A stretch of DNA of 22,873 bases from a virus: UHGV virus genome UHGV-0188094. The stretch is one strand, 5' to 3'. This document shows positions 1-15,690 of this stretch, piece after piece. The notes beneath the pieces were generated by a model, which saw nothing but the letters and a program-made list of their open reading frames with translations, was not told the DNA's origin and searched no databases. Within the stretch, counting starts at the first letter, position 1; each line of letters begins with the position of its first letter. The position numbers were made by a program, and so were the translations under genes.

Positions 1-214
1 ACCTGCACTCCAATTATTGACCAGTTCCTCACCGCGCCTCCCTCTCCGGCGGCGCGAATGAACATCTTATTGGCTATCACATCCGACACAAATGTTGCCA
101 TCCCATTGCTTAATCGAATAAAAATCAGGCTACATGGGTGCTAAATCTTTAACGATAACGCCATTGAGGCTGGTCATGGCGCTCATAAATCTGGTATACT
201 TACCTTTACACATT

Positions 215-577
215 GGGGCTGATTCTGGATTCGACGGGATTTGCGAAACCCAAGGTGCATGCCGAGGGGCGGTTGGCCTCGTAAAAAGCCGCAAAAAATA
301 GTCGCAAACGACGAAAACTACGCTTTAGCAGCTTAATAACCTGCTTAGAGCCCTCTCTCCCTAGCCTCCGCTCTTAGGACGGGGATCAAGAGAGGTCAAA
401 CCCAAAAGAGATCGCGTGGAAGCCCTGCCTGGGGTTGAAGCGTTAAAACTTAATCAGGCTAGTTTGTTAGTGGCGTGTCCGTCCGCAGCTGGCAAGCGAA
501 TGTAAAGACTGACTAAGCATGTAGTACCGAGGATGTAGGAATTTCGGACGCGGGTTCAACTCCCGCCAGCTCCACCA
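215..577 (+). ncRNA. ssrA: tmRNA (SsrA), full length, 363 nt
   Basis: Starts GGGGCTGATTCTGGATTCGACGGG and ends ...CGCCAGCTCCACCA, the conserved tmRNA ends. The internal tag reading frame gcaaacgacgaaaactacgctttagcagcttaa encodes ANDENYALAA-stop, the enterobacterial SsrA degradation tag. Confidence 0.97.
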
Positions 578-581
578 AATA
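533..581. repeat. attL: 49-bp direct repeat covering the 3' end of ssrA (left copy)
   Basis: By manual alignment, 533..581 is identical to 15820..15868; identity breaks on both sides (532 g vs 15819 t; 582 a vs 15869 t). Confidence 0.85.
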
Positions 582-587
582 AATCAA

Positions 588-620
588 GGGGTTACGTGAA
601 AGCGTAGCCCCTTTTTCTTT
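588..620 (+). terminator. Rho-independent terminator following ssrA, lying in element-derived sequence
   Basis: Stem ggggttacg / cgtagcccc (one G-U pair), loop tgaaag, then TTTTTCTTT at 612..620. It starts just after the repeat ends at 581. Confidence 0.6.
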
Positions 621-700
621 GGTAGTGGCGGCAAAATGGCGACAGACTATTGCGTCCATCTTGCCTATCGCCATCTTGAAATCATGCAAAGAGGTTTCAC

Positions 701-1183
701 ATGGAAGAACTTCACTTTGTTTACATCAATGCAAATGGTCGTATCGGTGTTCACTCAATACAGAGCATCAGTTATAGCGAAAATCATATACAGGGCATTT
801 GTAAGAACACCGATCGAATAAAAACCTTCCGAAAAGACCGCATTCTTAAACAGTACGATTCACCAGAACAAGCCATTCAGGAATGCGCGTCATTCCTCCC
901 CGAAAACTACTCACATCTCACTAAGCAGTCTGGTCCGAAAAAAAATACATTCGATGTGTGTTTCACCGGATTTAAGAAAGCAGATAAAGAAAGATTGGTT
1001 GATAAGGCGAATGAACAAGGATTAACGGTAAGAGCCTCTGTAACCCAAAGCCTTCAGATGCTCTGTTGCGGTTACAATGCAGGCCCATCGAAAGTATCGG
1101 CAGCCAGGATGAAAGGCACAATCATCATAGATGAGCCTGGCTTTATACATTTTCTTGAAACGGGTGAGATCCCAGATGAATAA
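701..1183 (+). CDS. Hypothetical protein (160 aa); C-terminal half reads like a BRCT-type fold (tentative)
   Basis: ORF with RBS AGAGG about 6 nt upstream of the ATG. The C-terminal stretch FDVCFTGF...GLTVRASVTQSLQMLCCGYNAGPSKVSAARMKGTIIIDE resembles BRCT domains by eye only. Lies between attL and ogr. Confidence 0.5.
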   Translation: MEELHFVYINANGRIGVHSIQSISYSENHIQGICKNTDRIKTFRKDRILKQYDSPEQAIQECASFLPENYSHLTKQSGPKKNTFDVCFTGFKKADKERLVDKANEQGLTVRASVTQSLQMLCCGYNAGPSKVSAARMKGTIIIDEPGFIHFLETGEIPDE

Positions 1184-1211
1184 AAACCTGCCGTAGCAGG
1201 TTCTCTTTCTC
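1182..1211. terminator. Candidate bidirectional terminator between the convergent 160-aa ORF and ogr
   Basis: Hairpin aacctgc-cgta-gcaggtt (1185..1202), flanked by an A-run upstream and a T/C-rich run downstream, so it gives a U-tract on either strand. Confidence 0.5.
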
Positions 1212-1428
1212 AAAAATTCATATGCCCCTGACCACCTGGCAATGGATGTGGAGGAGCAGTAGCAATCAGTGCGGGTGTCACAATAAACCGGACCACTGTT
1301 TCATGGGTAACAAAAGTGCTCCCGCAGTTAATATTTTGGCACTGGCAGTAACGCTCTTTGGTGCTTTCAGTTACTTGAAAACTGCTCCTTGTGTGTGCCG
1401 CATGACCACATTTTGGACAATTCATCAT
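1210..1428 (-). CDS. ogr: Ogr/Delta-type zinc-finger late transcription activator (about 72 aa)
   Basis: MNCPKCGHAAHTRSS...TKERYCQCQNINCGSTFVTHETV...PHPLPGG closely parallels phage P2 Ogr (C-x2-C ... C-x4-C zinc finger, HPLP tail). Start chosen at the internal Met pair rather than the ORF-track start at 1473. Confidence 0.85.
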   Translation of the reverse strand: MMNCPKCGHAAHTRSSFQVTESTKERYCQCQNINCGSTFVTHETVVRFIVTPALIATAPPHPLPGGQGHMNF

Positions 1429-1496
1429 ATCCAGATCCCTACCTTTGCTATCAGAATCATTGTAATGATACACATAATATCAATATTGAGAACACT

Positions 1497-2597
1497 TTAT
1501 TCCATTTCAAGATCATCAATCCTCACTTCAAGCTCCAGACTGGTCGTAAAACCGTTATCCGGGCTGACGGTATGCGTCAGAGTCGTAATGGTCCATTCCG
1601 CATCATCTATCGGCTGTTTAAAACCACTGACTTTCACTGGCATTTCCGTGTAGAGATCTGCCCGACCTTCCGCCAGTTGTAGCGAGAATGACGCAACGCC
1701 GCGTTGCAGGCGTTCCCACTGCATTTTCGCTGCCCGTTCAGCGTTACTCCGATTAGCATAGGTGCGATTAAGTACCAGCACGTTTTCATCCGTACCCACC
1801 AGGTAATCGCCCTGCTTCGCTTCCGGCTCTTTCTTCTGCTTCTTAGTCCTGCGCTTACGCTTCACCGTAGTGCTTTCTTTCTTCGCGGGTTCGCGGGTAT
1901 GCAACCAGCTGGCAATTACGCCCGTGTAGGCTCCGCGATCTGCCAGGGTAAAGCGGTGGCTGTCGCCGTCCTTGCGTGTGATAGTGATCACTGGCAGAGG
2001 TTTACCGCTGGCGCTTTTGCCCTGTCCCTGCCGGATGAATAACAGATTGCCATTTTTCACCGACGCAATAGCACCGTACTGGCGCGCCAGCCGCATCAAA
2101 AAACTGCCGTCACTCTCATTGGTCTGGTCTATATGATCCACGGGCTTATCCGACAGATCTTTACCCAATGCCATCTTCAGTTTGTGCCGCGCAGCTATTT
2201 CCTTCACCACTTCCCCAACGGTGGTCTTGTGCCACGACTTTTCACGGCGGGTATTCAGCGTTTCCCGAAAATCAGCACTTCGCGCCCGGATAGTCAGTCG
2301 GTCCGGTGCGCCAGTGTGTTCAATCTCGTCCACCGTGAATGCCCCTTTCGGGAAAAGCGGCTGCCCCTTCCAGCCCAGCGCCAGCGTAATGACCGCACCA
2401 CGGCGCGGCAGCACTATTTTTCCATCGGCGTCGTCCAGCTCCAGATCAAGCTGGTCCGCTTCAAAGCCCCGGTTATCCGTCAGCGTCAGCCTCATCAGGC
2501 GGTTATCCAGCACAGTGGTGATATCCCTGCCCTCAATACTGATGCTGAATGCGGGAGTTTTGTTGCCTTTGTTAAGCAGTTCAGAGCTGAAATTCAC
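1497..2597 (-). CDS. P2 gpD-like tail protein (late gene D), 366 aa
   Basis: Full-length ORF directly upstream of ogr, as in P2 (D-ogr). GTG start overlaps the gpU stop (GTGA). The gpD identification is from recalled family resemblance plus synteny. Confidence 0.8.
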   Translation of the reverse strand: MNFSSELLNKGNKTPAFSISIEGRDITTVLDNRLMRLTLTDNRGFEADQLDLELDDADGKIVLPRRGAVITLALGWKGQPLFPKGAFTVDEIEHTGAPDRLTIRARSADFRETLNTRREKSWHKTTVGEVVKEIAARHKLKMALGKDLSDKPVDHIDQTNESDGSFLMRLARQYGAIASVKNGNLLFIRQGQGKSASGKPLPVITITRKDGDSHRFTLADRGAYTGVIASWLHTREPAKKESTTVKRKRRTKKQKKEPEAKQGDYLVGTDENVLVLNRTYANRSNAERAAKMQWERLQRGVASFSLQLAEGRADLYTEMPVKVSGFKQPIDDAEWTITTLTHTVSPDNGFTTSLELEVRIDDLEME

Positions 2598-3037
2598 GAC
2601 ATCAGCCCTCCCACCGTTTTACTGATATCGCTTAAGGCAGATGTTGCCGTTTCCTGCAGATTATTCAGTTGCGCACTGAGATCACCGAACATATCGGACA
2701 GGGATTCATCCACCCGTTTGAGCGACAGGGTGAACTCAATCCGGCGCGGCATACCGTCGCGGAAAAACTCCGTTTTAGTCTGATTCAGTCCCTCAATCAC
2801 ATACATGCCGTAAATCGTGCCGCTGCCTTCAATCAGAGGCCATGCTTTCCCCTGTTCTGCCATCTGCTCCAGTGCCAGCAACGACAGCCTGCCGCCTGTT
2901 ATCTCCGGCATAAGAACACCGGAAAGCGTCAGCATGTCGTTTTCCGGTCCCAGAAACTGCGTGGACGGACGTCGGTTTACCCGACTGTTTGCCGCATGTC
3001 GCCAGCTGCGTTGATACTGCAGTTGTCTTCCTGCCAG
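2594..3037 (-). pseudogene. P2 gpU-like tail protein, 5'-truncated by a deletion junction
   Basis: The frame reads ...QLQYQRSWRHAANSRVNRRPSTQFLGPENDMLTLSGVLMPEITGG... and continues upstream of the ATG at 2935 to a stop at 3050..3052. gpU-like sequence begins near 3025; upstream of that the sequence belongs to the gpN fragment in another frame. Confidence 0.6.
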
Positions 3038-3639
3038 TAGATGGACAGGTTATCCAGACGGGTGATCAGCAGCGCATTCGGCGGGAAGAACGGCGCACGC
3101 ACGGCCTGCAGGCCACCCATGCGTTTCTGGCTGATGATCATATCGGCAGCCAGTTTTTCACTGTTTTCCTGCTCTTTGTTGACCAGCGGGAAATACTTGT
3201 CAGACAACAGTTCACGACCGCAAATCACCACCAGACCGTCATCGTCCTGGTAAACCACGTCGATAAGCTCATTGACGGCATCCATCACCACAGCGTCCAG
3301 GTTGGCATATTCGCCACCTTTCCCGACTTTCACCGCACCCGGAGTGGTTTCACCGCCCGTGGTGGTGCTGCCCATGACGTGATCCGGTGCATCCTCACGG
3401 ATTTTCTGCAGCCAGCCTTTGTTCACATCCTGCAGCAGCGGGTTTTCGCTACGGTTGGAGGTTTTCGCACGCTTCACGCCGTTAAAGCCGATCATGATGC
3501 GGTCCAGTGCCTGACGTTTCACGATGGCGTCACGGATGCGCACCTGGAAATCCTGAAACTTCGCCCACAGATCCAGCTTCGCGTAGGTCAGCACCGTGTC
3601 AAAGTTGGTCTGCTCGCATTTATATTCCACATCGACCAT
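2977..3639 (-). pseudogene. P2 gpN-like major capsid protein fragment (internal portion only)
   Basis: Translation YKCEQTNFDTVLTYAKLDLWAKFQDFQVRIRDAIVKRQALDRIMIGFNGVKRAKTSNRSENPLLQDV...VGKGGEYANLDAVVMDA...ISQKRMGGLQAVRAPFFP...NLSIY matches the middle of P2 gpN. The N-terminal third or so is absent and the last 19 residues are read from gpU DNA in another frame. Confidence 0.7.
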
Positions 3640-3651
3640 CAGGGTCGGATC

Positions 3652-4320
3652 GGTGAAGTGATCGCCCTTGAGCCTGCGCTGGCAAAATACACCCGACGCG
3701 GATTAGACCTGGATACCTACTGGTTTGTGCAATACGGTATGACAACCCAGCCGTATCAGTTCACGAAAGGCAGCATTTTTCATCTGATGGAACCGGATAT
3801 TAATCAGGAGATCTACGGCCTGCCCGGTTATCTTTCTGCCATTCCGTCAGCCCTGCTCAACGAGTCCGCCACGCTGTTCCGTCGCAAGTATTACATTAAC
3901 GGCAGTCATGCGGGCTTTATCATGTACATGACCGATGCCGCGCAAAACCAGGAGGATGTGAACAACCTCCGCAATGCGATGAAAAGCGCCAAAGGGCCGG
4001 GCAACTTCCGCAACCTGTTTATGTACTCACCTAACGGCAAAAAGGACGGGCTTCAGATTATCCCGTTATCAGAAGTCGCAGCGAAGGATGAGTTTCTGAA
4101 TATCAAAAATGTTAGTCGCGATGACATGATGGCGGCACACCGCGTTCCGCCGCAAATGATGGGGATTATGCCTAATAATGTCGGGGGGTTTGGGGATGTG
4201 GAGAAGGCTAGTAAGGTTTTTGTGATAAATGAATTAATTCCTTTGCAAAAACGATTTAGAGAAATTAATGCATGGCTCGGGGAAAAACTTATAGAATTTT
4301 CTCCATATGAGCTTAACTAA
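3652..4320 (+). pseudogene. P2 gpQ-like portal protein, C-terminal fragment (about 222 aa) fused to the gpN fragment
   Basis: Only the last third of the 443-aa ORF-track entry 2989..4320 is real coding sequence (LEPALAKYTRRGLDLDTYWFVQYGMTTQPYQFTKG...RKYYINGSHAGF...); the rest is antisense to gpN. Opposite-strand placement next to N and next to the cos-like site fits gpQ in a reversed P2 map. Confidence 0.55.
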
Positions 4321-4328
4321 AATATTAG

Positions 4329-4358
4329 TTGCCAGTACCGTATTGTTGCTACTGGCAA
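4329..4358. terminator. Hairpin between the convergent gpQ fragment and the ATPase gene (candidate terminator)
   Basis: Perfect 9-bp arms ttgccagta / tactggcaa with a 12-nt loop, flanked by AT-rich sequence. Confidence 0.35.
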
Positions 4359-4369
4359 TTGTAATAAAA

Positions 4370-6379
4370 TTACAAATATGTGTTGCTATGTAGAGATGTG
4401 TTTATTCCATCTTTTATCTCAATTTTTGACGAAGCATACTCATCATTCGCACTATCATCTATATCAAACTCATCTTGTAGATGAAGTGACTCATTTAACG
4501 GTTTATAAAACTCACCCATCATCATTTTGTAATGGGCAGTATGCTCACTACATTCAAATATCTTCTGAAAAACAATTAAATATTTTTGCACAGACTCCGT
4601 ATCTAAATTCATATAAAGATCATCACCTGCAAAATGGGAACCATCATTAATCCATGATACTAAAGATTTAAATATGATTTTTTCATCACCATAAAAATGA
4701 CACTCAAGCTTCCTAATATCCATCCCACCTAATATCTTAAAGTAATTCTCCAAAATCCTTCGCATTGTATTTTGTATAGTATTATTATTAATGTCTGTTC
4801 TTCTCAATTCGCACCAGAGCAAATCATAAGACGTTTTTATTGGGTTTGATTCGCACTTTTCAAGATATGAAACCTTCCCTTTTTTCCTTACAATCCAAAA
4901 AGTCTCCTCTTTCATTGCTTGATTACCGGATCTTTTGGTATTAAAAGTCAACTCTTTATGAAAATAAATATTATGAGTAAGGAATATAATTTGCTTAATA
5001 TTTCCTTCATCCTTACGAACATCCTCCATTAAATCTTTAATCAACGAACTTACAATAAACAGAATATCACTATCTAAACTTGAAATTGGATCATCAAATA
5101 CTACAACACGATCATCTAAAACACCTGATGCATTATCACTCCCTCTAACAAGGCTATAAAAGTACAAAAAAGTGATAAATGTCTTTTCTCCCTCACTAAG
5201 GGTTGTACGAGCATTATCTCCACTATCTCTCACTATCATATAATGCTTTTTATCTTCGGAGGGTTTTAAGTAAAAATTTTTGAAGCCATAAGAGTCCAGA
5301 ATCTTGTTAATTTTTGTAATAGTTGGAAGAGTACTGGTTTTATTAGACTCAATTGCCTCAATAGCCGAAGTATTTAACATTAACTTCTTTTTGTCTTCTT
5401 CTATCCCAGATTTAAGTCCTTGTAACGTCCTATTAAATTTATCAGATTTGCTACGGTAAGAAGTTATTTCAGACTTTAACTCCACCTTTACGATATATGC
5501 CCATATCTGCTTAGAAAGATTACTAGCCTCTACCTTTCTATTACTATGTATTTTGTTATTATTATCTATCAATAGATTTGAATCATTCAAAAAAGAAATA
5601 AAATCATCAACAACTTCACTTAAGTCACTAAAATGAACTGATTCACTTAAAAAATTGCGTTTATTTTTTGCCAATTCAAAATTCTTGTTTAATTCAGATA
5701 ATACTATCTTAGCCTTATCCTCAAACACTTCATAATTTATGAATGGAGATTTAATCGCCCTTATATCATCTATCGCCTTCAAGATATTATTAAGTTGATA
5801 TTCATATTGTAAAACCAATGCATCGATTTCTCTTTTTTTTAACTCATATGTTTTATCAAAATATGATGAAAGATTATCAAATATATTATCATTTACATCC
5901 TGCTGGCAGAATGGGCACTTGGGATTAGATTTATTGAAATATGTTAAACCCTCCTTAACCCAATCACTGTTATTGAGCATTGTAATTAAGTCTGAAACAC
6001 TAACGTCTTTTTTCCCTAGAATACGCTCACTCCAAATTTCCCTACTCAAAATATCATCTATCCCATTGAAGGATGGAATTGTAATTGATACATGTGATGT
6101 CAATTCAGTAGAAAAAACAATTTTTGCTTTCTCAATTAACTCTGCTATTGAGCAAACTTCTGATGTATTATTTTCATACTCAGCCAACACTCTGGCTTTA
6201 AATTTTTCACTACTATTCCTTAATCCCTCAAAAGCCTTTGAGAACACATTGTCATGTTTTACTTTTTGCTTCCAACATGAATCTTTAAAAGATTTTTCAT
6301 GGTCTTCGATTTTTTTAATAACGCCTAATTCATTATCACCACCATCTATTAACTTTTCCTTTGCTATAATAGATTCCAT
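4370..6379 (-). CDS. ABC-type (PrrC/RloC-like, AAA_13-like) ATPase, C-terminal 669-aa part: CPFC motif, coiled-coil insert, LSEGEK signature, Walker B/D-loop, H-loop, and a C-terminal putative effector domain
   Basis: CPFC at aa 155-158; K/E/N-rich predicted coiled coil at about aa 175-380; TLSEGEK (aa 393-399); VVVFDDPISSLD (aa 425-436); FLTHN (aa 466-470). The C-terminal roughly 200 aa contain R540-x3-E544 followed by His 561 and His 582. Very AT-rich compared with the flanking phage genes. Confidence 0.65.
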   Translation of the reverse strand: MESIIAKEKLIDGGDNELGVIKKIEDHEKSFKDSCWKQKVKHDNVFSKAFEGLRNSSEKFKARVLAEYENNTSEVCSIAELIEKAKIVFSTELTSHVSITIPSFNGIDDILSREIWSERILGKKDVSVSDLITMLNNSDWVKEGLTYFNKSNPKCPFCQQDVNDNIFDNLSSYFDKTYELKKREIDALVLQYEYQLNNILKAIDDIRAIKSPFINYEVFEDKAKIVLSELNKNFELAKNKRNFLSESVHFSDLSEVVDDFISFLNDSNLLIDNNNKIHSNRKVEASNLSKQIWAYIVKVELKSEITSYRSKSDKFNRTLQGLKSGIEEDKKKLMLNTSAIEAIESNKTSTLPTITKINKILDSYGFKNFYLKPSEDKKHYMIVRDSGDNARTTLSEGEKTFITFLYFYSLVRGSDNASGVLDDRVVVFDDPISSLDSDILFIVSSLIKDLMEDVRKDEGNIKQIIFLTHNIYFHKELTFNTKRSGNQAMKEETFWIVRKKGKVSYLEKCESNPIKTSYDLLWCELRRTDINNNTIQNTMRRILENYFKILGGMDIRKLECHFYGDEKIIFKSLVSWINDGSHFAGDDLYMNLDTESVQKYLIVFQKIFECSEHTAHYKMMMGEFYKPLNESLHLQDEFDIDDSANDEYASSKIEIKDGINTSLHSNTYL

Positions 6380-6705
6380 TAGCTTATTTTTTCTTCTTTA
6401 AGAGATATTAGTTTCTCTTCATCCTCCTTAAGATCGCTACCAAGGGTAAATACACCTTTAATTTTATCTTGACTAAAATTTCTTTCAACAAAATCTTTAT
6501 TATATACGTAGCTTATTAAAGATATATTATTTTTCCATTTAATCGGACATGTTGGATATTGTTCAGGGTCATTAATAATTTTACTTATAGTTGTTTTACC
6601 TGCACCATTAGCTCCATATAAATAGTTAAATTTAGAAAGTCCATGTAAAAGCTGCGTAGGGCCATTATATGAGCCTACCTTGTCAATAACTACCTCTTCA
6701 ATCAT
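6379..6705 (-). CDS. N-terminal Walker-A part (108 aa) of the same ABC-type ATPase, separated from the downstream ORF by a frameshift (TAATG overlap)
   Basis: P-loop YLYGANGAGKTT at aa 28-39; RBS GAGGA upstream of the ATG at 6705. The stop TAA shares its last A with the ATG of the 669-aa ORF. One extra A in the A6 run (6387..6392 on the plus strand) would fuse the two into a single ORF of about 778 aa. Confidence 0.6.
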   Translation of the reverse strand: MIEEVVIDKVGSYNGPTQLLHGLSKFNYLYGANGAGKTTISKIINDPEQYPTCPIKWKNNISLISYVYNKDFVERNFSQDKIKGVFTLGSDLKEDEEKLISLKEEKIS

Positions 6706-6840
6706 CCTCTAATCCTCAAAAAACAGATTAATCCTATCAAATCAATGATAATAGAAGACATTACTTACCTAATTACAAGGTGATCATTTATACAGCTGTA
6801 AATAAATCAGGCTAATCATCTATTTGTCATAACGCGCGCT

Positions 6841-6859
6841 CGTATCCCCGCCACGCCTG
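6841..6859 (-). other. cos-like site (186-type cohesive-end core), inverse orientation
   Basis: The reverse complement of 6846..6857 is GGCGTGGCGGGG, which equals the first 12 nt of the 186 cohesive end as I remember it (GGCGTGGCGGGGAAAGCAT). The downstream bases diverge. Confidence 0.45.
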
Positions 6860-6901
6860 CCCGCTTTATGTAGTGGTTTTCATGCACCTGCATGATCTAC
6901 G

Positions 6902-6926
6902 CAAAAGCCCGCCAGTTCTGGCGGGC
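6902..6926 (-). terminator. Rho-independent terminator for the leftward A / tum-like / DinI-like transcript
   Basis: On the minus strand: stem GCCCGCCAG ... CTGGCGGGC followed by TTTTG (plus-strand aaaagcccgccagttctggcgggc). Confidence 0.65.
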
Positions 6927-7061
6927 CTTAGCAAAAACGATCCTCAAACGATCATGCGATCTCATGCGGCATAGACATGCACTACAGAGCTAACGCCTCG
7001 CAAGGGCTCGTTGTTCAACCTTGCTGACGCCAGAAGCAAGTTCAGACGCCAGCAACGTTTC

Positions 7062-7295
7062 TTAATGCAGCCAGCTGTCGTCTTCCCACACCTTCTGCAT
7101 AATTTTCATCACTTGTTTTCTTTCTTCGTCCAGTTGCAGTCCGGTTAGTTCCACACCGTTAGAGCTACCTTTGCGAATGCGAATTACCGTTTTGGGATAC
7201 AGGGGGCGCAGATTGCGGTAAAGCTCGGATTCAAGGGCGTCCAGGGTAGACTGGCTAATCTTCTGCTCTTTATCGATCATTATTTCAATGCGCAT
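7062..7295 (-). CDS. DinI-family protein (77 aa), as in the SOS-induced Tum/DinI modules of 186-like phages
   Basis: MRIEIMIDKEQKISQSTLDALESELYRNLRPLYPKTVIRIRKGSSNGVELTGLQLDEERKQVMKIMQKVWEDDSWLH follows the DinI pattern (MRIE..., hydrophobic core, C-terminal W and acidic tail). RBS GAGGTG lies upstream of this internal Met. Confidence 0.75.
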   Translation of the reverse strand: MRIEIMIDKEQKISQSTLDALESELYRNLRPLYPKTVIRIRKGSSNGVELTGLQLDEERKQVMKIMQKVWEDDSWLH

Positions 7296-7305
7296 AAAAG
7301 TCACC

Positions 7306-7494
7306 TCAGCTGATGACATCCATTGAGTGGTTGTATTCGTGGGTTCTGATTTTTGCCATGAGTTCATCAGTCAATTCAGAAACCCACTGTAGAGCCAGCC
7401 CCTTCTCTTCATCACTACACTCACTAGCCGCTACAAGCTTAAGAAAAAAATCAATGCGCTGGAGCTTCAAAGACTCCAAAAAATAGTCCTGCAT
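7306..7494 (-). CDS. Small hypothetical protein (62 aa) immediately downstream of a LexA box; possible Tum-like antirepressor partner
   Basis: ORF starting MQDYFLESLKLQRID... with RBS GGAGG 6 nt upstream of the ATG at 7494. Position matches the SOS-regulated right-end operon of 186. Confidence 0.5.
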   Translation of the reverse strand: MQDYFLESLKLQRIDFFLKLVAASECSDEEKGLALQWVSELTDELMAKIRTHEYNHSMDVIS

Positions 7495-7535
7495 CTTTCC
7501 TCCTATGACACCACACGCAATACTGTATGTATAAC

Positions 7536-7555
7536 CACTGTTTATATTTACAGTA
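7536..7555 (-). promoter_or_regulatory. LexA (SOS) box overlapping the promoter of the tum-like / DinI-like operon
   Basis: CTGT-N8-ACAG with an AT-only spacer (cactgtttatatttacagta), about 45 bp upstream of the 62-aa ORF start. Confidence 0.6.
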
Positions 7556-7647: not shown

Positions 7648-10062
7648 TTAATACAGGTTCCGCCACTGATCATCTTCCTGCAAACGCTGGTTCCGATAGA
7701 AGATACGCAGGCCTGCTCCTGACGGAATACTGCCTCCGCGAAGGAGTAAATCGATCTCTTTCTCGCTGCCATCAAATCCTCTGGACTTCAGCTCATACAC
7801 GAGCTGCAGTCGCTGATGGTCTGTAATTCGCTGTTTGTAGTCTTTACGCCGTTTCGGTTTCACCAGGCGTAACCTTGCTGCCAGTTCCCGGCGCTCTTTT
7901 TTGCTCATACTGTGCAGGTAATCGTGCAACTCCTTGTCATCCATGCTGGTAATGTCCGTTCTGGGGTCCCCATCAGCTGATTTATCTTTCTCCTGTTGGT
8001 TCAAATTTTCAGCAAGGGGACAGTTATTGCCACGAGTCCAAGGGGCGCAAGCGCCCTGGTCGGCTGCCGCCTCCTGAACGTCAACGGCCTTACGAACCAT
8101 TTTCCACTTCACTGCATGAGTGCAGATCTTGCCCTCTGCAATGGGTGACCAGATGCCATAAATACGAATGCCGTGATCGCCATAGGCGGTCGGCTCTTCG
8201 TTGATTTCATAAGCGGTTCTGATCAGGTGATATTTGCGGGGAACCAGTACGCCGCCCTGCTTCATGATGTAGGTGGCAAAACAACCAGCATCAGCAGCAG
8301 CCAGGATTGCATCAAGGCGCGGGTTATCCAGTACCGGCGCACCTGCTTTTTTGTCCCCCTGTTGCCTTGCCGCCTGACCAGCCAGCAATCGCAGTTCACG
8401 GTAAGCCTGACGCCCCGGAATGCCAAAGAAGCGGAATTGCTGAACACGATGCAGAGACGCCCAGGCATTAACGTATTCAGCATTATCACGCAGGGATTTC
8501 CCCGTTTCCTTGCTGATCTCGCCAGCCAGACCACGCCCGTCAATGTTCTTACTGATGTATTTCGCGATGTAGCTTGTTGGCGTACCTTTGCGCGGGTTAA
8601 TCAACTCAGACTTAAAGCGCGGCCCAGTGTTATTGCCCAGCTCCTCGCGGTCTTCACGGATGGCAAACTTACGCAGTAATACAGTGATGGCGCGGCGGTC
8701 TTTTTTGCGCATAAAACACAACAGGTGCCAGTGAACTGTACCGTCATGATGCGGCTCAGCCACCCGCACGCCATACCAGCGCAATCCGGCTTTGTGCATC
8801 GCCTTACGAAATGCAGCAAACATGCCGACCAGGTAATCACTACTTTGTCTTACCGTCGCATTTGTCCAGGTTGGGTTGGGCCTGCCGTTATTTAGCGTGG
8901 AATGGAAACGTGACGGACAGGTGATGGTGTAGAAAACGGCACAGTCACTGCGCATTTCAGCGATAAGCTCCAGACCTTTAACACAGGCCATCATCTCATT
9001 GCGGCGATGCGCCGGGTTGCTGCTGCTGGCGTTTACCACATCTTCCATATCCAGCGTGTCACCGTCTTCGTTCACCAGTTCATGAGAACGGAAAAACTCC
9101 AGCGACTTACGGCGCTGCTCACGTTTATGCATCACGGCTTCATAGCTGACATAGGGAGATGCTTTTTTGCTGACCAGACAGACAGCACGCAACTGCTCTT
9201 CCCGCCATTCGCAACGCATCTTCCATAATTTCCTATACCACCAGTCGGCGCACAGCATACGCGCCAGCGAACCCGGAATGAGTTCATAGGGCACGGGTTT
9301 ACGGCGGTTTCTTTTCCGACGGAGTTGCTCAAACGCAGGCGGGATGACATCCAGTCGCAGGGTTTCTGCTGCCACCTTTTCCCATGTCTTGCGGATTTCT
9401 TCTGGCTTAACATCATCGGTGGCGTACAAATCACCACAAGCGGCATCAAGACACATGCTCATATGCGCAGCGACAAGAGTAGACAGGCGTTTCACCTGAT
9501 CCTGACTCATTTCAGGCAGGATCAGCAGGCCGTCCAGCCCTTCATGGCTTGCCATAAAGCGAAAAGAAGTGGATAGCTGACTCTCGCGTACATGCTCCAG
9601 TCGTTCCAGACATGGCTTAATCGTCTCACGCAAATAGCGGGAATAAGCCTTTGGCCTGCCCAGGCTGCTGAAGTATTCGATACGTTGCATCAGCGGCTTG
9701 CTGATGTGGGTGGGCTGGGCGCTGACATCTGCCAGAATGACCATGTCTGGGTTAAAACGCTGCTGCTCATGCGCCAGCTTTGCCCGACTAATGAGCTTAT
9801 CCTGCTCCATTTCGCGCTGGACAGGATCACGGGATTCATTAAAGAAATAACGCTCCCAGACCTGATCACTCAGTGCCTCACGGCGCAGCAGTTCCTGCTC
9901 GTTATCGGCAGCGTACAGAGTGATCAGGTTTGAAAGCGCAGAAACCGGCGCAACTTCCGCCGGGTCCAGATAAGGGTTAATGGCCTTTTTCGGGCTGTTC
10001 CATGAGAACGATGCGGAAGCCTCGTTAAAGCCGCAGCAGTTGTTCATATCGGCATGGTTCAT
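7648..10062 (-). CDS. P2/186 gpA-type replication initiation protein (rolling-circle endonuclease), 804 aa
   Basis: Large ORF in the position of gene A downstream of the lysogeny-switch genes. Identification is from recalled family resemblance and synteny. Its ATG overlaps the stop of the upstream Dam-like gene (ATGA). Confidence 0.8.
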
Positions 10063-11018
10063 GCACGTACTCCGTACACGGCAGAACTATCCACGCCACG
10101 CGAATAATCAAATCCCACCCAGCAGCGCGGCCCGGAAACAGCGATGATTTCTGTTGCAGATTTACTCTCACCAGCTGCTACGCCGATGCTGCGTTTTGCC
10201 TTGATGTAGTGGTGAGTAAAATTGCGATACAGCGAACGGATCAGGGATGTGTCACTGTTAGAAATAATGACCGGATGTCCTTCTGATGACCGATGTTCAA
10301 GAACGGATGCCAGGTGATACTGGTCATCTTCAGTGAAGCCGTCAGTGTGATAACCGGAAAACGTGCCGTCATACGGCGGATCGCAATACACCACATCCCC
10401 CGCCTTCAACATCGCCAGCGTTTCATCAAAGCTGGCGCAGATAAACGTTGCCCGCTGGGCTTTTTCTGCAAATGCGCGAATTTCTTTTTCAGGAAAATAC
10501 GGATTTTTATAATTACCGTAGGGAATGTTGAAATGCCCGCTCTTGTTATAGCGACATAAACCACGGTAACCGTGACGATTGAGATACAGGAAATATACCG
10601 CTTTCATGAAATCAGTAATTTCAGTTGAGTAATTAAACTCCTGCCTTATGTTGTAATAAGCCACCTCCCTGTTTGCTTCCTCAAATAAAGCTCTGGCGCG
10701 AGATATAAACGATTCACAATCAGCAGCAACCTTTTTATAGAGGTTGATTAAATCAGGATTAATATCCGCAACAAGATAGCTGGGGTAGTGGATCTCCTGC
10801 GCTTCGTTCTGGATTGCTTCAGCGGTCACACGCAGCAGTTCTGCCGCTTCGACGTGGTTTAGCTGGCGGGATGTGATATGACACGCAAGACTATCAAGGC
10901 GGGCAGCCATTGCTTCAGCCCTTGCCCGGCGTTCTTCCAGACGAGCCTCTGTCAGTAAAATATTAAGCCCTGCGTCATCCGGTCCGATTTTAGTCGTGAG
11001 GGTTTCAATATTACGCAT
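10059..11018 (-). CDS. Dam-like N6-adenine DNA methyltransferase homolog with a replaced N-terminus that lacks the AdoMet-binding motif I
   Basis: The region [15 protein letters not shown]...[36 protein letters not shown]...[17 protein letters not shown]...PVIISNSD aligns to E. coli Dam from about residue 50 onward, including the DPPY catalytic motif. The first roughly 85 aa are Ala/Glu-rich helical sequence with no FxGxG or W-GGK motif. Start taken at the ATG at 11018 (RBS AGGAGA). Confidence 0.7.
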
Positions 11019-11085
11019 AATCAATTCTCCTGAATTTAGATAAAGGGATGCCCGGCGGGTTTACGCCATTAATTTCATTAGCTGG

Positions 11086-11427
11086 TTAATTCGGCATGGT
11101 TAGCCGTCTGGGAAATAAGCTCACCACTGCACGAAAATGATTCATTGCTTTAATCAACTCCCGCTTTTCGTCAGTGGTCAGCTCATTAATGCTGATGCTA
11201 TGACGTTCAGCTGGAATTTTTGCCATAAAGAATATGGCAGCCAGTGCCCGTTTATTTTGTTCGCTATTAATATCCCGTGGATCACGCATATCTTTAATAA
11301 ACCGCTCAAGCTCTGACTCAATATTAAGACCAAAAACTTTCGCTCTTAATTCCGCAATGTGATTAAGTCCATTCAGGCGTTCACCGGGGCTTAATGGAAC
11401 AGTCGCCGCAGCGCCTTCAATAGCCAT
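11086..11427 (-). CDS. Hypothetical phage early-region protein (113 aa)
   Basis: ORF with RBS GGGGGA 4 nt upstream of the ATG, in the early rightward operon between cII/fil and A. Confidence 0.5.
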   Translation of the reverse strand: MAIEGAAATVPLSPGERLNGLNHIAELRAKVFGLNIESELERFIKDMRDPRDINSEQNKRALAAIFFMAKIPAERHSISINELTTDEKRELIKAMNHFRAVVSLFPRRLTMPN

Positions 11428-11591
11428 TTGTTCCCCCGTTTTTTCGTTGATAGTTCTGCCAACAATTCATCTTGCGAACGGCACGGATGCCAGCGTTTAC
11501 CATCCTCACCCATGATCCAGCCGTGACCGTAGTGCATTGCCGGACTTTGTTTTACCAGCAGCGATGCAAATGATGGTTCTTTCGTCAGCAT
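11391..11591 (-). CDS. Small early-region protein (66 aa), at the position of 186 fil
   Basis: Internal Met (MLTKEPSFASL...) with RBS GAGGTG; starts 8 nt after the cII stop. Overlaps the next ORF by 37 nt in a different frame. Function is assigned by position only. Confidence 0.4.
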   Translation of the reverse strand: MLTKEPSFASLLVKQSPAMHYGHGWIMGEDGKRWHPCRSQDELLAELSTKKRGNKWLLKALRRLFH

Positions 11592-11598
11592 AAGCACC

Positions 11599-12108
11599 TC
11601 ACAGCAAACCGAATGAAGCACCGAGGCCAGTCACGGTATCAACTGCACTCGCCATCGCAGGATTAGCCTGTAAACGGGCCTGCAATGAAACAGCCGCCAG
11701 CGCCATCAGTCGTGTAACAGAGTTAATGCTGCTGATCGCATCACGACGGCCTGCACTGGTTTTTACATCGCCAGAAACCGCACCTGCCGCAACACGCCCG
11801 ATCTCTGCGGTTGCACTCATGACGTAATGTGGCAGTTTCTCTTTTGCTACCTCATTAATCGGTACACATGGCAGGCAGTGAATCTGTGCCAGAAAACCAT
11901 CTATCAGCGTTGAGTCTTCTGTCAGATCGGTAAGCAGCCAGATTTCTGGCGCATTGAGCTGATGCGGTTGATCTGGGTTGAGTTTGTTTCGCAGTGTCTG
12001 AACATTCATTCCTGCACGTTCTGCCAGCTTCGCCATATTGTGATGTAGTGCAAAAGCTCTACAGGCTTCATCAAAATGCGGGTGTTTGGAAATCTTATAA
12101 TCAAACAT
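11599..12108 (-). CDS. cII: 186 CII-like transcriptional activator (169 aa)
   Basis: Same length as 186 CII; N-terminal HTH region ...AKLAERAGMNVQTLRNKLNPDQPHQLNAPEIWLLTDLTEDSTLIDGFLAQIHCLPC...; sits after apl as in 186. Confidence 0.8.
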   Translation of the reverse strand: MFDYKISKHPHFDEACRAFALHHNMAKLAERAGMNVQTLRNKLNPDQPHQLNAPEIWLLTDLTEDSTLIDGFLAQIHCLPCVPINEVAKEKLPHYVMSATAEIGRVAAGAVSGDVKTSAGRRDAISSINSVTRLMALAAVSLQARLQANPAMASAVDTVTGLGASFGLL

Positions 12109-12383: not shown

Positions 12384-12499
12384 AGTGCAGTATCTCTTAG
12401 TTTGGTTTCGTTTTATCTTGTTTTATGTGGTTTGGTTTTGCTTTTCAAACCATAAATGGATATTAGGATCACTTTTTATATACGTCAAGAGGTTTGATT
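12384..12499. promoter_or_regulatory. Divergent promoter/operator region of the lysis-lysogeny switch (pR/pL analog)
   Basis: 116-bp intergenic region between the divergent apl and cI genes, with iterated ggttt/gttttg motifs. Individual promoter hexamers were not resolved. Confidence 0.5.
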
Positions 12500-13132
12500 A
12501 TGAGTTTAATAAAGGCGGGAAATGATAGTGGTGGGCGCGATGCAATTAACAGGCTTATTAAGGCTTACAACTTCAGCTCACGACAGCAGCTCTGCGAACA
12601 TCTGGAAGTATCAAAAAGCACTATGGCTAACAGATACTTAAGGGATAGCTTTCCTGCCGAATGGGTAATTCAATGTGCCCTTGAAACAGGAGCTTCCCTT
12701 CTATGGCTGGCTACTGGTCAAGGAGATATGTATGCGTGTGAGAACGAAGAAACAAATCTCAAAAATGAACCTCCTGTCACTGTAAGACCACTTTCTAAGA
12801 TCGTTGCTCCTAGCATCAAACGTGTTGAACTGAAGAACGGCGAACTGCAGCCAAGTGATGAAATTCTTCTTGATAGCAGCCTGCTCGATGGTGACTCATC
12901 CAACGCTTTATTTGTTAAAACAGCTAATAATAGCTTTGTAGTGGATACGTCCGTTAAACAAGTCAGTAATGGCTTCTGGTTAGTCGATATGGACGGAGTT
13001 AAAAGCATCGTTAAAATTGCGCGCATACCCGGAAACAAAATAGTAGTTAACCAAGATGACACTTCATTTGAATGTTCTGTAGATGATGTGGAAGTCGTAG
13101 GACGTGCAGTCAAAGTAATCAAGAACCTCTAA
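12500..13132 (+). CDS. cI: CI-type immunity repressor, two-domain (186 CI-like), about 210 aa
   Basis: N-terminal HTH (SSRQQLCEHLEVSKSTMANRYL...) resembling P2 C and 186 CI, plus a C-terminal domain. ATG at 12500 is preferred over the TTG at 12494 because of the RBS AAGAGG 7 nt upstream. Co-oriented with and just upstream of int. Confidence 0.7.
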   Translation: MSLIKAGNDSGGRDAINRLIKAYNFSSRQQLCEHLEVSKSTMANRYLRDSFPAEWVIQCALETGASLLWLATGQGDMYACENEETNLKNEPPVTVRPLSKIVAPSIKRVELKNGELQPSDEILLDSSLLDGDSSNALFVKTANNSFVVDTSVKQVSNGFWLVDMDGVKSIVKIARIPGNKIVVNQDDTSFECSVDDVEVVGRAVKVIKNL

Positions 13133-13135: not shown

Positions 13136-14155
13136 ATGACCATCAGAAAACAGCCGAACGGAAAATGGTTGTGTGAGTGCTATCCCAATGGACGCAATGG
13201 TAAGCGCGTGCGTAAGCAATTTGCTACCAAAGGCGAAGCCATTGCGTTTGAAAGCTTCACAATGGAAGAAGTGAACAAAAAACCGTGGTTAGGAGAAAAG
13301 GATGATCGGCGACACCTATCAGAATTAATTGAGCTTTGGTATTCCCTGTATGGTCAGACACTCGCAGACCCCAAGCGCCTCATGGCGAAACTTAGAATTA
13401 TCTGTAATGGTCTAGGCGACCCCATCGCCTCAGAACTGACAGCCGGTGACTTTACGAAATACCGCGAAGCACGGTTAAAAGGTGAAGTACGAAATGAAGA
13501 TGGGACGCTTATGTCGCCCGTTAAGCCCCGCACGGTAAACCTCGAACAGCGCAATCTATCATCGGTGTTCGGTACATTAAAAAAACTAGGACACTGGTCA
13601 GCACCAAACCCGCTGGCAGGACTTCCAACCTTCAAAATTGCCGAAGGTGAGCTGGCTTTTCTTTCCATGGACGAAATCAAGCGCCTGTTGGCTGCATGTG
13701 CTGAATCTCAAAGCCCCAGCTTATTAATGATTGCCAAAATATGTTTGGCTACCGGCGCACGTTGGAGCGAAGCCGAAAACCTGCATGGCCACCAAATATC
13801 GAAATACCGAATTACTTATATAAAGACAAAAGGTAAGAAAAACAGAACAGTACCGATATCACAGGAACTATATGACGAACTCCCCAAGCACAGAGGGAAG
13901 TTATTCACGCCATGCAGAAAAGCCTTTGAGCGTGCAGTAAAGCGGGCCGGTATTGAACTTCCGGAGGGGCAATGCACCCATGTATTACGTCATACATTCG
14001 CCAGCCATTTTATGATGAACGGCGGAAACATACTGGTACTACGCGATATTCTGGGCCATGTGGATATAAAAATGACGATGATTTATGCCCACTTTTCCCC
14101 TGACCACCTAGAAGATGCGGTAACAAAAAACCCACTGTTTAATTTAAAATGGTAA
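13136..14155 (+). CDS. int: P2/186-type tyrosine integrase (339 aa)
   Basis: N-terminus ...GRNGKRVRKQF..KGEA.AFE... and C-terminal motifs ...ATGARWSEA..., ...HVLRHTFASHF..., ...GHVDIKMTMIYAHF parallel P2 Int (R, H-x-x-R, catalytic Y). Confidence 0.85.
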   Translation: MTIRKQPNGKWLCECYPNGRNGKRVRKQFATKGEAIAFESFTMEEVNKKPWLGEKDDRRHLSELIELWYSLYGQTLADPKRLMAKLRIICNGLGDPIASELTAGDFTKYREARLKGEVRNEDGTLMSPVKPRTVNLEQRNLSSVFGTLKKLGHWSAPNPLAGLPTFKIAEGELAFLSMDEIKRLLAACAESQSPSLLMIAKICLATGARWSEAENLHGHQISKYRITYIKTKGKKNRTVPISQELYDELPKHRGKLFTPCRKAFERAVKRAGIELPEGQCTHVLRHTFASHFMMNGGNILVLRDILGHVDIKMTMIYAHFSPDHLEDAVTKNPLFNLKW

Positions 14156-15690
14156 ATTTAACGATGAAAAGATTGAAATCAGTTTCCGATGCAGTTATCC
14201 AACTCAGATTAAATGCGGTAAAAGCAAGTATTCAAAGCGTCAATCCAAACGAGTTTATAACACATTGCCTTGATTATAACCTCCAGAAATTTAACAATCA
14301 GCTTGAAATGTTACAACACCTACCATGGGTTGTGAATTTATGCATTAAATGGTCCGCCAGTGCGCTGGGTAAAAAACGGAAATTTAAACATATTGACAGA
14401 CCTGGTGCTGTCAGGTTGCTACAACGAGCATATGAGGAACTAAGTATAATTCCAACTGGTCTGGAAAATATAGACAAAGGGATTAACTTTTTCCTTAGAA
14501 ATACGTTATATCAACAAGGTATTTATCAAAGATTAGATGCTTTAAATACAATTAGCAGACAAGTTTTCTTGTTTTCTTCCTTAGATGACAACAATAGAAT
14601 CAAGCGTAGATTCAAAGAACTTACTGATGTTGATATAAACGATTTTCTAAAACTATCATTTGTGTTAGTATCACTCGTTACCTTACAAGCACCAGTAAAG
14701 AAAATAACAATAGATTCTTTCGCAGCTCTTTACTCCGTAATACCTAAAGATACAATCGAGAAATTTCTGAATACTATATCTATCCCTTACGAAGAACTAG
14801 CTCGGTTTTGCTGTACAAAAGATAATGAGACACCTTTAGTAGAATATTATGCTCCATCGCCTTTCTTAGAAAAACCTTTCATCAAATTCGAAGGAAATTA
14901 TCACCAAATACATACGCAGCTAACTTCGACCAGTATACAAACCTTTATATATGATTTGCTTCGCAGAGATGATGCAGAATCGTTCATGGACAAATTTGGG
15001 CGAGTTTTCGAAAATGCAGTCAACCAGCTATTAGATGAAAGTGGAATTGCTTATATTGCTGAAGGAAATTTAAAAGAATATCTACCTCAAGAGAATAAAG
15101 TTGTAGATTTTCTACTACCTCATGATGAAGCTAACATTTTCATCGATGCTAAAGGTGTTGAGATAAACCAAAAGGGAATGGTTACACTACGACCAGGGGA
15201 TATTTCTGCCAATATAAAAAGCTCCGTATTAAAAACTATAGAACAAGCACACTCAGTAAATAGAGAGCTAATTAAAAAAGGTAACCAAAATTTTTCTTTT
15301 AAAAAAGAGTCCTACATTTTATGTCTTACTTATAAAAATTTATTCCTTGGAAATGGTACATTTCTAAATAAATCCTATGCTAACATCGAAATGAAAAAAA
15401 TCCGAGATAGGCATTCAGAAGAATATCAAATACCTGATGAGAACATTTTCTGCATATCATTTGAGGAATTCGAGTATCTGCTATCTTCTTGCAAGGAATA
15501 CTCAAAACCTGTACATGAGGTACTGCGAGAAGCTGTAGTTAGAAACCAAACACCATCAAGTGCAGTTTTCCTTTTTGCACATCATATCCGTGACTCATTC
15601 CCCAAAATACGTTCATCTGAGATCGTCAGGCTCGCAGGCTTGAGCGAGATCAACCATATCGTTGAACGATTAGAGCAAGCTGGCTCTTGA
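14149..15690 (+). CDS. Cargo protein (513 aa) with a central PD-(D/E)xK-like nuclease motif; function unknown, candidate defense or abortive-infection factor
   Basis: AT-rich ORF whose ATG overlaps the last codons of int. Candidate motif E305 ... VVD320FLLP ... IFID333AK335 (about 15046..15170). No family recognised by eye. Confidence 0.55.
   Translation: MVNLTMKRLKSVSDAVIQLRLNAVKASIQSVNPNEFITHCLDYNLQKFNNQLEMLQHLPWVVNLCIKWSASALGKKRKFKHIDRPGAVRLLQRAYEELSIIPTGLENIDKGINFFLRNTLYQQGIYQRLDALNTISRQVFLFSSLDDNNRIKRRFKELTDVDINDFLKLSFVLVSLVTLQAPVKKITIDSFAALYSVIPKDTIEKFLNTISIPYEELARFCCTKDNETPLVEYYAPSPFLEKPFIKFEGNYHQIHTQLTSTSIQTFIYDLLRRDDAESFMDKFGRVFENAVNQLLDESGIAYIAEGNLKEYLPQENKVVDFLLPHDEANIFIDAKGVEINQKGMVTLRPGDISANIKSSVLKTIEQAHSVNRELIKKGNQNFSFKKESYILCLTYKNLFLGNGTFLNKSYANIEMKKIRDRHSEEYQIPDENIFCISFEEFEYLLSSCKEYSKPVHEVLREAVVRNQTPSSAVFLFAHHIRDSFPKIRSSEIVRLAGLSEINHIVERLEQAGS

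Follow-up and report, generated by a model that had tools for sequence, protein, structure and literature searches.

In E. coli, cryptic P2-like prophages produced by deletion of internal segments are common, and the P2 remnant of strain K-12, reportedly described by Barreiro and Haggard-Ljungquist in 1992, is said to consist of the 3' end of D, ogr and att. A defence hotspot close to cos is known in P2-like phages (PMC9122126). Near-identical defence genes are also on record from defective P2-like prophages, and both this category of element and the question of domesticated defence cargo are already in the literature (PMC13586616). Here, we analysed a stretch of DNA of 22,873 nt (the window) that contains a further element of this kind. 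It resembles the prophages of PMC13586616 and the K-12 P2 remnant in that core genes persist as fragments beside hotspot cargo in a non-mobile, vertically inherited element. In contrast to the prophages of PMC13586616, the defence gene carries a frameshift in the sublineage of the window, and compared to the K-12 remnant, the element is much larger and has kept its early region and cos.

The window contains ssrA (tmRNA; 215-577, plus strand), found with ARAGORN with the tag ANDENYALAA, and the 3' end of this gene is the integration target. Two 100% identical 49-nt direct repeats at ssrA, attL (533-581) and attR (15820-15868), lie 15,287 bp apart and bound an element of that length. Its gene content and order are those of the P2 family (Peduoviridae): Pfam matches were obtained for Ogr_Delta, Phage_GPD, P2_GpU, Phage_cap_P2, Phage_portal, Phage_GPA, Phage_CI_repr and Phage_integrase, and blastn showed that ogr, D, U, N, Q, gpA, a CI/Cox-type switch and a tyrosine integrase are collinear with Escherichia phage 500465-1 (NC_049342; L001) and the prophage of E. 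coli D7. Window positions 1-3024 (ssrA side, ogr, D and U) matched 500465-1 from 30638 to 27615 at 97.8% identity (blastn), 3024-3652 matched capsid gene N of L001, L002 and L004 at 97.1-99.8% nucleotide identity, and 3650-6983 matched the portal gene Q and the AAA_13 gene of the D7 prophage at 99.5%. Because these are nucleotide-level matches of 97-99.8%, the identities of the sequences are already settled.

With 500465-1 and D7, the element shares the arrangement ogr-D-U ... N ... Q-cargo-cos-DinI-A-Dam-...-CII-CI-int at 92-99.8% nucleotide identity. It occupies the same ssrA site as 500465-1 and carries the same Q and AAA_13 cargo as D7, whereas the D7 prophage is located at ybjL/rcdA and encodes an additional KAP NTPase that is missing from the window. 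About 17.5-19 kb of late genes, a TraR/DksA-like gene and the N-terminus of Dam are absent compared to both intact relatives. Judged from its sequence, the element is a defective Fels-2/186-like P2-family prophage in the 3' end of E. coli ssrA.

Between attL and ogr lies a plus-strand ORF of 160 aa (701-1183) with a weak Pfam BRCT match (E = 0.0021, short of the curated cutoff), which is also annotated in the intact relative 500465-1. The late-gene activator ogr (1210-1428, minus strand; 72 aa) is intact and covers the full Pfam Ogr_Delta profile (E = 9e-21), and the tail/baseplate hub protein gpD (1497-2597, minus strand; 366 aa; Pfam Phage_GPD) is full length, equal to D in 500465-1, D7 and the APEC O78 remnant. 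D is the only intact gene of the morphogenesis and lysis module (Q P O N M L, X Y K lysB/C, R S V W J I H G, FI FII E T U D), the rest being deleted or reduced to fragments of U, N and Q, which falls short of a viable phage. Since this module is incomplete, the element is a defective member of the P2 family. Nor is it an R-type tailocin, as the sheath, tube, tape measure, baseplate, fibre and lysis genes all fall inside the first deletion.

The breakpoints were mapped base by base against three intact relatives. Junction 1 (3024/3025; three-way alignment) joins U nucleotide 56 to N nucleotide 898 out of frame, with 1 nt of microhomology (T), while junction 2 (3650-3652; alignment with L002 and L004) places 5'-truncated remnants of N and Q head to head, with 3 nt of microhomology (TCG). 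No filler DNA was present at either junction in these alignments. Relative to the intact phages, deletion 1 removed about 14-15.5 kb between 5' U and 3' N, and deletion 2 removed about 3.4 kb comprising 5' N, O, P and 5' Q. Two illegitimate deletions at 1-3 nt of microhomology would account for the missing 17.5-19 kb: the first, from U codon 19 to N codon 300, would have taken the tail, baseplate, fibre and lysis genes together with L and M, and the second, from N codon 90 to Q codon 120, would have taken O and P as well as the 5' portions of N and Q. A preliminary description of this DNA had proposed two deletions gutting a P2/186/Fels-2-type morphogenesis module, and the three adjacent high-identity matches to internal parts of genes bear this out. 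Its junction positions (about 3025-3037 and 3640-3651) were essentially right, as was its list of removed genes by alignment to the intact relatives; such an alignment and a search for microhomology, both of which it had suggested, gave the breakpoints and the 1 and 3 nt reported above. Its view that the pieces are fragments rather than small complete genes also holds, as they match internal parts of full-length P2-family genes and their Pfam coverage is truncated.

The extents of the three stumps differed from those first proposed. The gpU' stump (2594-3024, minus strand) retains residues 20-161 of 161 (88%; Pfam P2_GpU 45-120 of 120), having lost only its first 19 codons, and the blastn match to 500465-1 stops at U nucleotide 56, not in mid-U. 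The gpN' stump of the major capsid protein (3024-3652, minus strand) had been thought to lack its first third or so; it retains residues 91-299 of 352 (59%; Pfam Phage_cap_P2 90-289 of 327), with the last 53 codons also missing and both ends gone. The gpQ' stump of the portal protein (3650-4320, plus strand; 99.5% to D7 Q) comprises residues 121-342 of 342 (65%; Pfam Phage_portal 98-277 of 321) rather than the last third. The stumps had further been described as fused in frame (gpU'-gpN'-gpQ'), which translation of all relevant frames excluded. N' and U' are in different frames: the N' reading frame enters U DNA out of frame and continues for 15 codons to a stop at 2977, while in the U' frame a stop lies 9 codons upstream of junction 1 and the first usable start is Met49, at 2935. 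Because N' and Q' lie on opposite strands and abut 5' end to 5' end by frame translation, an N-Q fusion protein is impossible.

The junction-spanning N' ORF is present in the index of 44 collection blocks and the Q' stump in that of 35, and 24 contigs with this N' ORF were read. Identical junctions (junction-specific 40-mer GCTGCGTTGATACTGCAGTTGTCTTCCTGCCAGTAGATGG) were present in isolate drafts and gut metagenomes, in at least 24 contigs altogether, with both junctions together at ssrA/smpB in every contig inspected. A search with the ORFs of the Q' stump and the junction-spanning N' for intermediates that have only one of the two deletions gave none. The flanks of the copies differed by 0-1 SNP over about 7.5 kb, and such essentially identical flanks indicate that all copies belong to one clone. 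The junctions were absent from 5,426 complete E. coli genomes and gave 0 matches among GTDB species representatives, and the single IMG/VR match was a prophage call from an isolate genome.

Sister copies carry additional lesions. L008 lacks window positions 1278-2527 (ogr, D) and L009 lacks 3795-7380 (Q', AAA_13, cos, DinI), each deletion being private to one copy, and the 160-aa gene is truncated in L019. SNPs within the element are clustered, and 23/40 and 18/28 of the variant alleles are common to the D7 phage, which points to recombinational import. The remnant would be inherited vertically within one clone and eroding further, while it may still trade short sequence patches with related phages through homologous recombination. 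Because the copies share one site and one clonal background and sisters have suffered varied losses, the pattern is that expected under neutral decay. Five further disruptive events in sister copies all fall outside the early region (roughly p = 0.06 by a crude target-size argument), which is weakly suggestive of constraint on that region.

The principal cargo gene encodes an AAA_13 ATPase, classified as PDC-S06 by PADLOC (4370-6705, minus strand), and is 99.5% identical to its D7 counterpart. In the window, a T7-to-T6 slip (1-nt deletion) at 6392 splits it into 108 aa and 669 aa. This frameshift at 6392 also occurs in L005 and L013, and the gene is frameshifted in L017 and L025 as well; L011 has a frameshift at a separate position, near 5840, and L009 has lost the gene. 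Most sister copies encode the intact 778-aa form (PADLOC PDC-S06, E = 8.5e-267). A 513-aa ORF beside int had no PADLOC or Pfam match.

These accessory genes could be the reason that the host keeps a domesticated remnant, with PDC-S06/AAA_13, the 513-aa ORF, the 160-aa BRCT-like ORF and CI immunity as the benefit, a reading that we regard as unlikely. The cargo does lie within the known cos-proximal hotspot of P2-like phages (PMC9122126), and there is precedent in the defective prophages with near-identical defence genes (PMC13586616). As in those prophages, P2 core markers are present here as fragments (U', N', Q' and Dam'), but the neighbouring defence gene, intact in several sisters and as the 778-aa form in most, is broken in the window and in the copies listed above, as is the 160-aa ORF in L019. 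With 0-1 SNP in its flanks, the clone is also too young for retention of any gene to inform on selection. An independent remnant of the APEC O78 type (NC_020163, many complete genomes) has the same architecture with both ends kept, ogr-D-U-(stump)|Q'-hotspot cargo-DinI-A...CI-int, and has likewise lost the head/tail/lysis core; however, such a layout would follow whenever a contiguous 20-kb late block is deleted internally. The APEC O78 element differs from ours in its origin, its single T'|Q' junction, its att site at ybjL/rcdA, its TIR cargo, its int and CI, and in having U, Dam and TraR intact.

A putative cos-like site, GGCGTGGCGGGGATACGAG (6839-6857, minus strand), was spotted on visual inspection and by aligning the sequence with the annotated ends of 186 and P2. 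It is identical to the annotated 186 cohesive end over the first 13 of 13 nt and diverges thereafter, and the non-coding block around it (6833-6980) is shared with Fels-2, RE2010 and Klebsiella phages at 94-100% conservation. By sequence match, a 19-nt P2/186-type cohesive end site is therefore present between Q and the early region; the exact P2 cos 19-mer gave no match with up to 3 mismatches allowed. The SOS module (7062-7555, minus strand) has a LexA box at 7536-7555 (one match versus 0 expected by chance) upstream of a 62-aa ORF (7306-7491) and a DinI-like gene (7062-7295; Pfam DinI, E = 7e-23). The replication endonuclease gpA (7648-10062, minus strand; 804 aa; Pfam Phage_GPA) is full length, equal to A in D7.

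It is followed by an in-frame DUF2732-Dam' fusion (10059-11024, minus strand), in which the Dam methylase is N-terminally truncated by a third deletion at 10786/10787. Alignment to D7 showed that this deletion of about 353 bp, with TA microhomology (2 nt), removed the TraR/DksA-like gene and Dam codons 1-43; the Pfam MethyltransfD12 match begins at profile position 40, and all complete-genome matches listed have the undeleted arrangement of about 555 bp at this site. A 186-type CI repressor (12494-13132, plus strand; Pfam Phage_CI_repr and CI_C) and the tyrosine integrase (13136-14155, plus strand; Pfam Int_N and Phage_integrase) are present, and an 80-aa ORF at the Apl/Cox position had no Pfam match. 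The regulatory, replication and SOS-controlled modules and the cargo loci, which had been described as remaining, are thus present, but the early region is not fully intact and the main cargo is frameshifted. The element retains int, CI, CII, A, ogr, D and the 186-like cos-like site, and since int, CI, CII, A, ogr and cos are intact in the window copy, residual excision and replication are possible.

This inventory is what favours a satellite-like hitchhiker that would excise and replicate upon SOS induction, be packaged at cos by a co-infecting P2-family helper, and transactivate the late genes of that helper with its own ogr. The 80-aa Apl/Cox-position ORF, the LexA box upstream of the DinI-like module and the other retained functions fit such a life cycle, and the recombination patches are a sign of contact with related phages. 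P4-like satellites are similarly small integrative elements (11.6 kb versus about 15 kb here), and they too have a cos of P2 type, an activator of the Ogr/Delta family and a defence hotspot next to cos. However, the Pfam content of all called genes included no alpha primase-helicase, sid/psu or delta/epsilon gene; capsid-size redirection (sid or psu-like) and anti-helper genes are missing, the replication gene is a P2-type gpA, and the content is plainly that of a full phage reduced by deletion. No sign of horizontal spread was seen, with every copy found at ssrA in one clonal background, 0 GTDB representatives and a sole IMG/VR match from an isolate genome, and the lineage persists even though sister copies lost cos or ogr. 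Excised circles were considered as an explanation for the Logan contigs of 15,298-15,299 bp and rejected, as their length reflects assembly-graph breaks at the 49-nt att repeats (15,287 - 49 + 2x30 = 15,298, assuming a k=31 assembly).

We consider the satellite reading very improbable. The same low probability applies to the idea that the remnant is a nascent helper-dependent 'mini-P2', in which int, the CI/CII switch, the SOS-controlled module, gpA with its origin, ogr and the conserved cos would allow SOS induction or superinfection to lead to excision, replication, helper transactivation and packaging (perhaps as a dimer of some 30.6 kb); if true, it would be a snapshot of the origin of a satellite from a deleted phage. 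The terms 'domesticated' and 'satellite-like' in the preliminary description found no positive support, given the single site, the single clone, the sisters that lost ogr-D or Q'-cos-DinI, and the other frameshifts.

It is also barely plausible that the stumps are expressed, either as a 443-aa product or as shortened pieces of capsid and portal protein, and that they serve as dominant-negative decoys directed against P2-like phages that superinfect the host. A long plus-strand frame is open at 2989-4320, and 65% of the portal protein survives in Q' and 59% of the capsid protein in N'. This 443-aa ORF is not a gene: its first half, ahead of Q', is the shadow of N' read antisense, together with a little of U', and the shadow is equally open in intact phages: the antisense frame of the intact N in D7 has just 2 stops and a 238-codon open run. 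Gene callers left it uncalled and instead reported N' and Q' as two separate 220-aa genes. A promoter and terminator scan across the stumps was at background (18 promoter sites versus 15.7 expected), with no promoter-like site within the 18-nt N'/Q' interval, and Q' is missing in L009. U', N' and Q', out of frame or on opposite strands, would instead be non-functional debris, severed from all four late promoters, which by the P2 gene map would have been lost with the deleted DNA; with this promoter-bearing DNA gone, the stumps would be silent. That the junctions are assembly artefacts has next to no likelihood, since the same sequences recur in independent NCBI isolate, ENA metagenome and Logan assemblies.

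Collectively, it is highly probable on sequence grounds that a P2-family prophage was gutted by microhomology deletions, that its stumps are debris, and that the element sits in one clone in which it is decaying. As such, it is an ordinary case of a well-known kind and carries little weight on its own. Of modest value is that the sister copies of one clone form a time series of prophage decay, with three microhomology deletions common to all copies, two large private deletions, two independent frameshifts in the defence gene, and patches imported from live phages. In this case, a defective P2 keeps exchanging sequence with other phages, and its defence gene is not protected from inactivation.

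ARAGORN placed ssrA, the tmRNA gene, at 215-577, and we found that a 49-nt segment taking in its 3′ end (533-581) recurs perfectly at 15820-15868, at a spacing of 15,287 bp. The two repeats bound an integrated element as its attL and attR. ORFs and Pfam matches between them follow the P2-family gene order, beginning with a 160-aa BRCT-like ORF and continuing with a full-length late-gene activator, ogr (72 aa), the tail/baseplate hub gpD (366 aa), fragments of the tail gene U, capsid gene N and portal gene Q, an AAA_13 gene and a DinI-like gene. A full-length gpA (804 aa) and a DUF2732-Dam protein come next, followed by DUF5347, Fil and CII (CP76), an 80-aa ORF, a 186-type CI and a tyrosine integrase; int, CI and CII are all full length. 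Between int and attR, AT-rich DNA (32-38% GC) carries a 513-aa ORF (14149-15690) that has no family match in Pfam or PADLOC and may be uncharacterised cargo. Past attR we observed a second island (15950-22873), which lies in tandem with the element where attR repeats the 3′ end of ssrA. Its genes, all in AT-rich DNA, encode a P4-type integrase (15950-17260) and a large serine recombinase (17543-19099), followed by a consecutive pair of ParB_N/RepB-like proteins (19089-19985 and 19982-20878).

Using blastn against the intact Escherichia phage 500465-1 (NC_049342), which also occupies ssrA, we aligned window positions 1-3024 to phage positions 30638-27615 (97.8% identity), 3024-3652 to positions 12095-11467 within N (98.1%), and 3646-4211 to Q (82%). 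On the Q side a closer reference was the intact E. coli D7 prophage (3650-6983 at 99.5%), and the N segment was 97.1% identical in D7 and 99.8% identical in strain MSB1_9I. Three-way alignments placed junction 1, between the U and N stumps (U′ and N′), at 3024/3025, with one T assignable to either parent, and junction 2, between N′ and the Q stump (Q′), at 3650-3652, with TCG common to both parents; neither junction contains filler bases. U′ begins at U nucleotide 56 and retains residues 20-161 of 161; N′ runs from N nucleotide 270 to 898, retaining residues 91-299 of 352; and Q′ begins near Q nucleotide 359 and retains residues 121-342 of 342. Independently of the nucleotide alignments, Pfam profile coverage is truncated for all three.

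The extent of each deletion was measured against one collinear reference, D7. Deletion 1 corresponds to positions 9923-24033 of the D7 locus L027 (14.1 kb, or 15.5 kb in 500465-1). It takes 55 nt from the 5′ end of U and 53 codons from the 3′ end of N, along with the tail genes (tape measure, E/E′, tube, sheath, fibre, fibre assembly, baseplate genes I, J, W and V, S and R), lysC, lysB, the lysozyme and holin genes, X, L and M. Deletion 2 (24663-28047, 3.4 kb) takes N codons 1-90, the whole of O and P, and Q codons 1-120. Alignments to both references thus bear out the junction positions and lost genes proposed in the preliminary description, which had been made from the sequence alone, although its estimates that U was cut midway and that only the last third of Q survived do not agree with the residues retained.

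That description also had the three stumps fused in frame, which translation contradicts. The N′ frame runs 15 out-of-frame codons into U DNA to a stop at 2977, and in the U frame a stop lies nine codons upstream of junction 1 and the first start codon is Met49, at 2935. N′ lies on the minus strand and Q′ on the plus strand, 5′ end to 5′ end after deletion 2, and the called ORFs are only 18 nt apart. The P and O genes of P2 are arranged divergently, and the opposite strands of N′ and Q′ fit that layout. The junctions and the remnant are real, but the fusion and the proportions are not. A 443-aa plus-strand ORF (2989-4320), in which Q′ is preceded by the antisense of N′, was rejected as a gene: its N′ part is an antisense shadow ORF that is by chance in phase with Q′. 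The antisense frame of intact D7 N is nearly stop-free (2 stops, with a 238-codon open run), and the gene callers of public assemblies treat N′ and Q′ as distinct genes of 220 aa each. A consensus promoter scan was at background (18 sites versus 15.7 expected), with none in the N′/Q′ interval. P2 has four Ogr-dependent late promoters, PP, PO, PV and PF. Because the established P2 map would place all four in DNA deleted here, the stumps and gpD are probably silent.

Since the N′ ORF crosses junction 1, its exact sequence was used as a marker of deletion 1. Within the public collection it was recorded in 44 blocks, from which 24 contigs were read; among these were NCBI isolate drafts (GCA_021646645.1, GCA_000703925.1, GCA_019373645.1 and GCA_019366805.1) and contigs assembled from human gut metagenomes or by Logan. 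The Q′ ORF, indexed in 35 blocks, adjoins N′ in every contig shown, and no contig with only one of the two junctions was seen among those inspected via these ORFs. Independent assemblies agree on both junctions, ruling out an assembly artefact. No match covering the junctions occurred in 5,426 complete E. coli genomes, a junction-1 40-mer was absent from GTDB species representatives, and the single IMG/VR hit was a prophage called in the genome of an isolate. Every copy lies at ssrA/smpB, and approximately 7.5 kb of chromosomal flank is identical among copies except for one SNP, a pattern indicating that the remnant is inherited vertically in one clone. One copy has another prophage beside it: in contigs L010/L021 (GCA_019373645.1), a lambdoid-type prophage (integrase with Arm-DNA-bind_2, S24 repressor) directly adjoins the attL side, replacing the smpB flank, and may be another tandem insertion at ssrA.

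Within this clone, the element has continued to change. Comparison of the window with D7 and the complete-genome matches listed revealed a third deletion of ~353 bp at 10786/10787, with TA microhomology, that takes a TraR/DksA-like gene and Dam codons 1-43, including the LKWAGNK and EPFAGS SAM-binding region. It joins DUF2732 in frame to the remaining Dam as a 321-aa ORF (10059-11024), the one genuine in-frame fusion that the element contains; all complete E. coli genomes listed have the undeleted arrangement. The cos-adjacent cargo gene (4370-6705), assigned to PADLOC candidate defence family PDC-S06 (E = 8.5e-267 for the intact form) and Pfam AAA_13, is 778 aa long in the D7 prophage and in several of the sister copies. 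In the window and in sister contigs L005, L013, L017 and L025, a T7-to-T6 homopolymer slip at 6392 splits it into 108 aa and 669 aa, and L011 has a different frameshift. Further losses are private to single sister contigs, which lack window positions 1278-2527 (L008; ogr and most of D) or 3795-7380 (L009; Q′, AAA_13, cos and DinI), and in L019 the BRCT-like ORF is cut to 91 aa. Differences in L007, L008 and L011 form SNP clusters within the element (1516-1778, 7003-7530, 8089-8500, 10143-10265 and 11082-11788), with identical flanks, and most variant alleles equal those of the D7 phage (23 of 40 and 18 of 28). This suggests patchy homologous recombination with other P2-like phages, by which the defective prophage would have received their sequence through gene conversion.

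Several parts are still functional on paper. A predicted 186-like cos, GGCGTGGCGGGGATACGAG, lies on the minus strand at 6839-6857; its first 13 nt equal the annotated 186 cohesive end and match P2 at 12 of 13 positions. This 19-mer belongs to a non-coding block (6833-6980) with 94-100% conservation across Fels-2, RE2010 and many P2-like phages of Klebsiella and E. coli. Given this position, the cargo gene sits between cos and Q in this phage lineage, whereas in P2 and 186 Q comes after cos within about 190 bp; the gene falls in the hotspot already described near cos, flanked by gpA and gpQ (PMC9122126). A LexA-box match, CACTGTTTATATTTACAGTA, at 7536-7555 (0 expected by chance) is followed downstream by a 62-aa ORF (7306-7491) and then the DinI-like gene (7062-7295), which together look like a split Tum-like SOS module.

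The element is best explained as an ordinary defective prophage that microhomology-mediated illegitimate deletions produced, that became fixed in one clone and that is now decaying. The gutted P2-type remnant of the preliminary description is real, but neither its 'satellite-like' nor its 'domesticated' label found support. A satellite-like element is mechanistically conceivable, because the remnant retains cos, ori/gpA, int and ogr, but nothing positively supports it: the copies seen occupy one site and one host background only, sister copies without cos (L009) or ogr (L008) persist, and capsid-redirecting and helper-manipulating genes are absent from the element. Domestication is not supported here, since sublineages are inactivating or losing the defence gene and other kept genes, and retention in so young a clone cannot signal selection.

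An ordinary defective prophage of this kind has counterparts. The remnant in E. coli APEC O78 (NC_020163; also in many other complete genomes) keeps both ends in the same way but is of independent origin, with the order ogr-D-U-T′|Q′-TIR cargo-DinI-A...int, a single T′|Q′ junction, and a site at ybjL/rcdA rather than ssrA. MSB1_9I has a full N adjoining a truncated portal, and WGI31CT has a D′-O rearrangement. Taken together, the APEC O78 remnant and the MSB1_9I portal indicate that the contiguous late block has repeatedly undergone internal deletion in P2-like prophages of E. coli. Defective P2-like prophages have been described next to conserved defence genes, with the question of whether they are domesticated or still swapping left open (PMC13586616); here, core sequence has been swapped and the defence gene is without protection. 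The locus is a further case of a known category, defective E. coli P2-like prophages arising from internal deletion.
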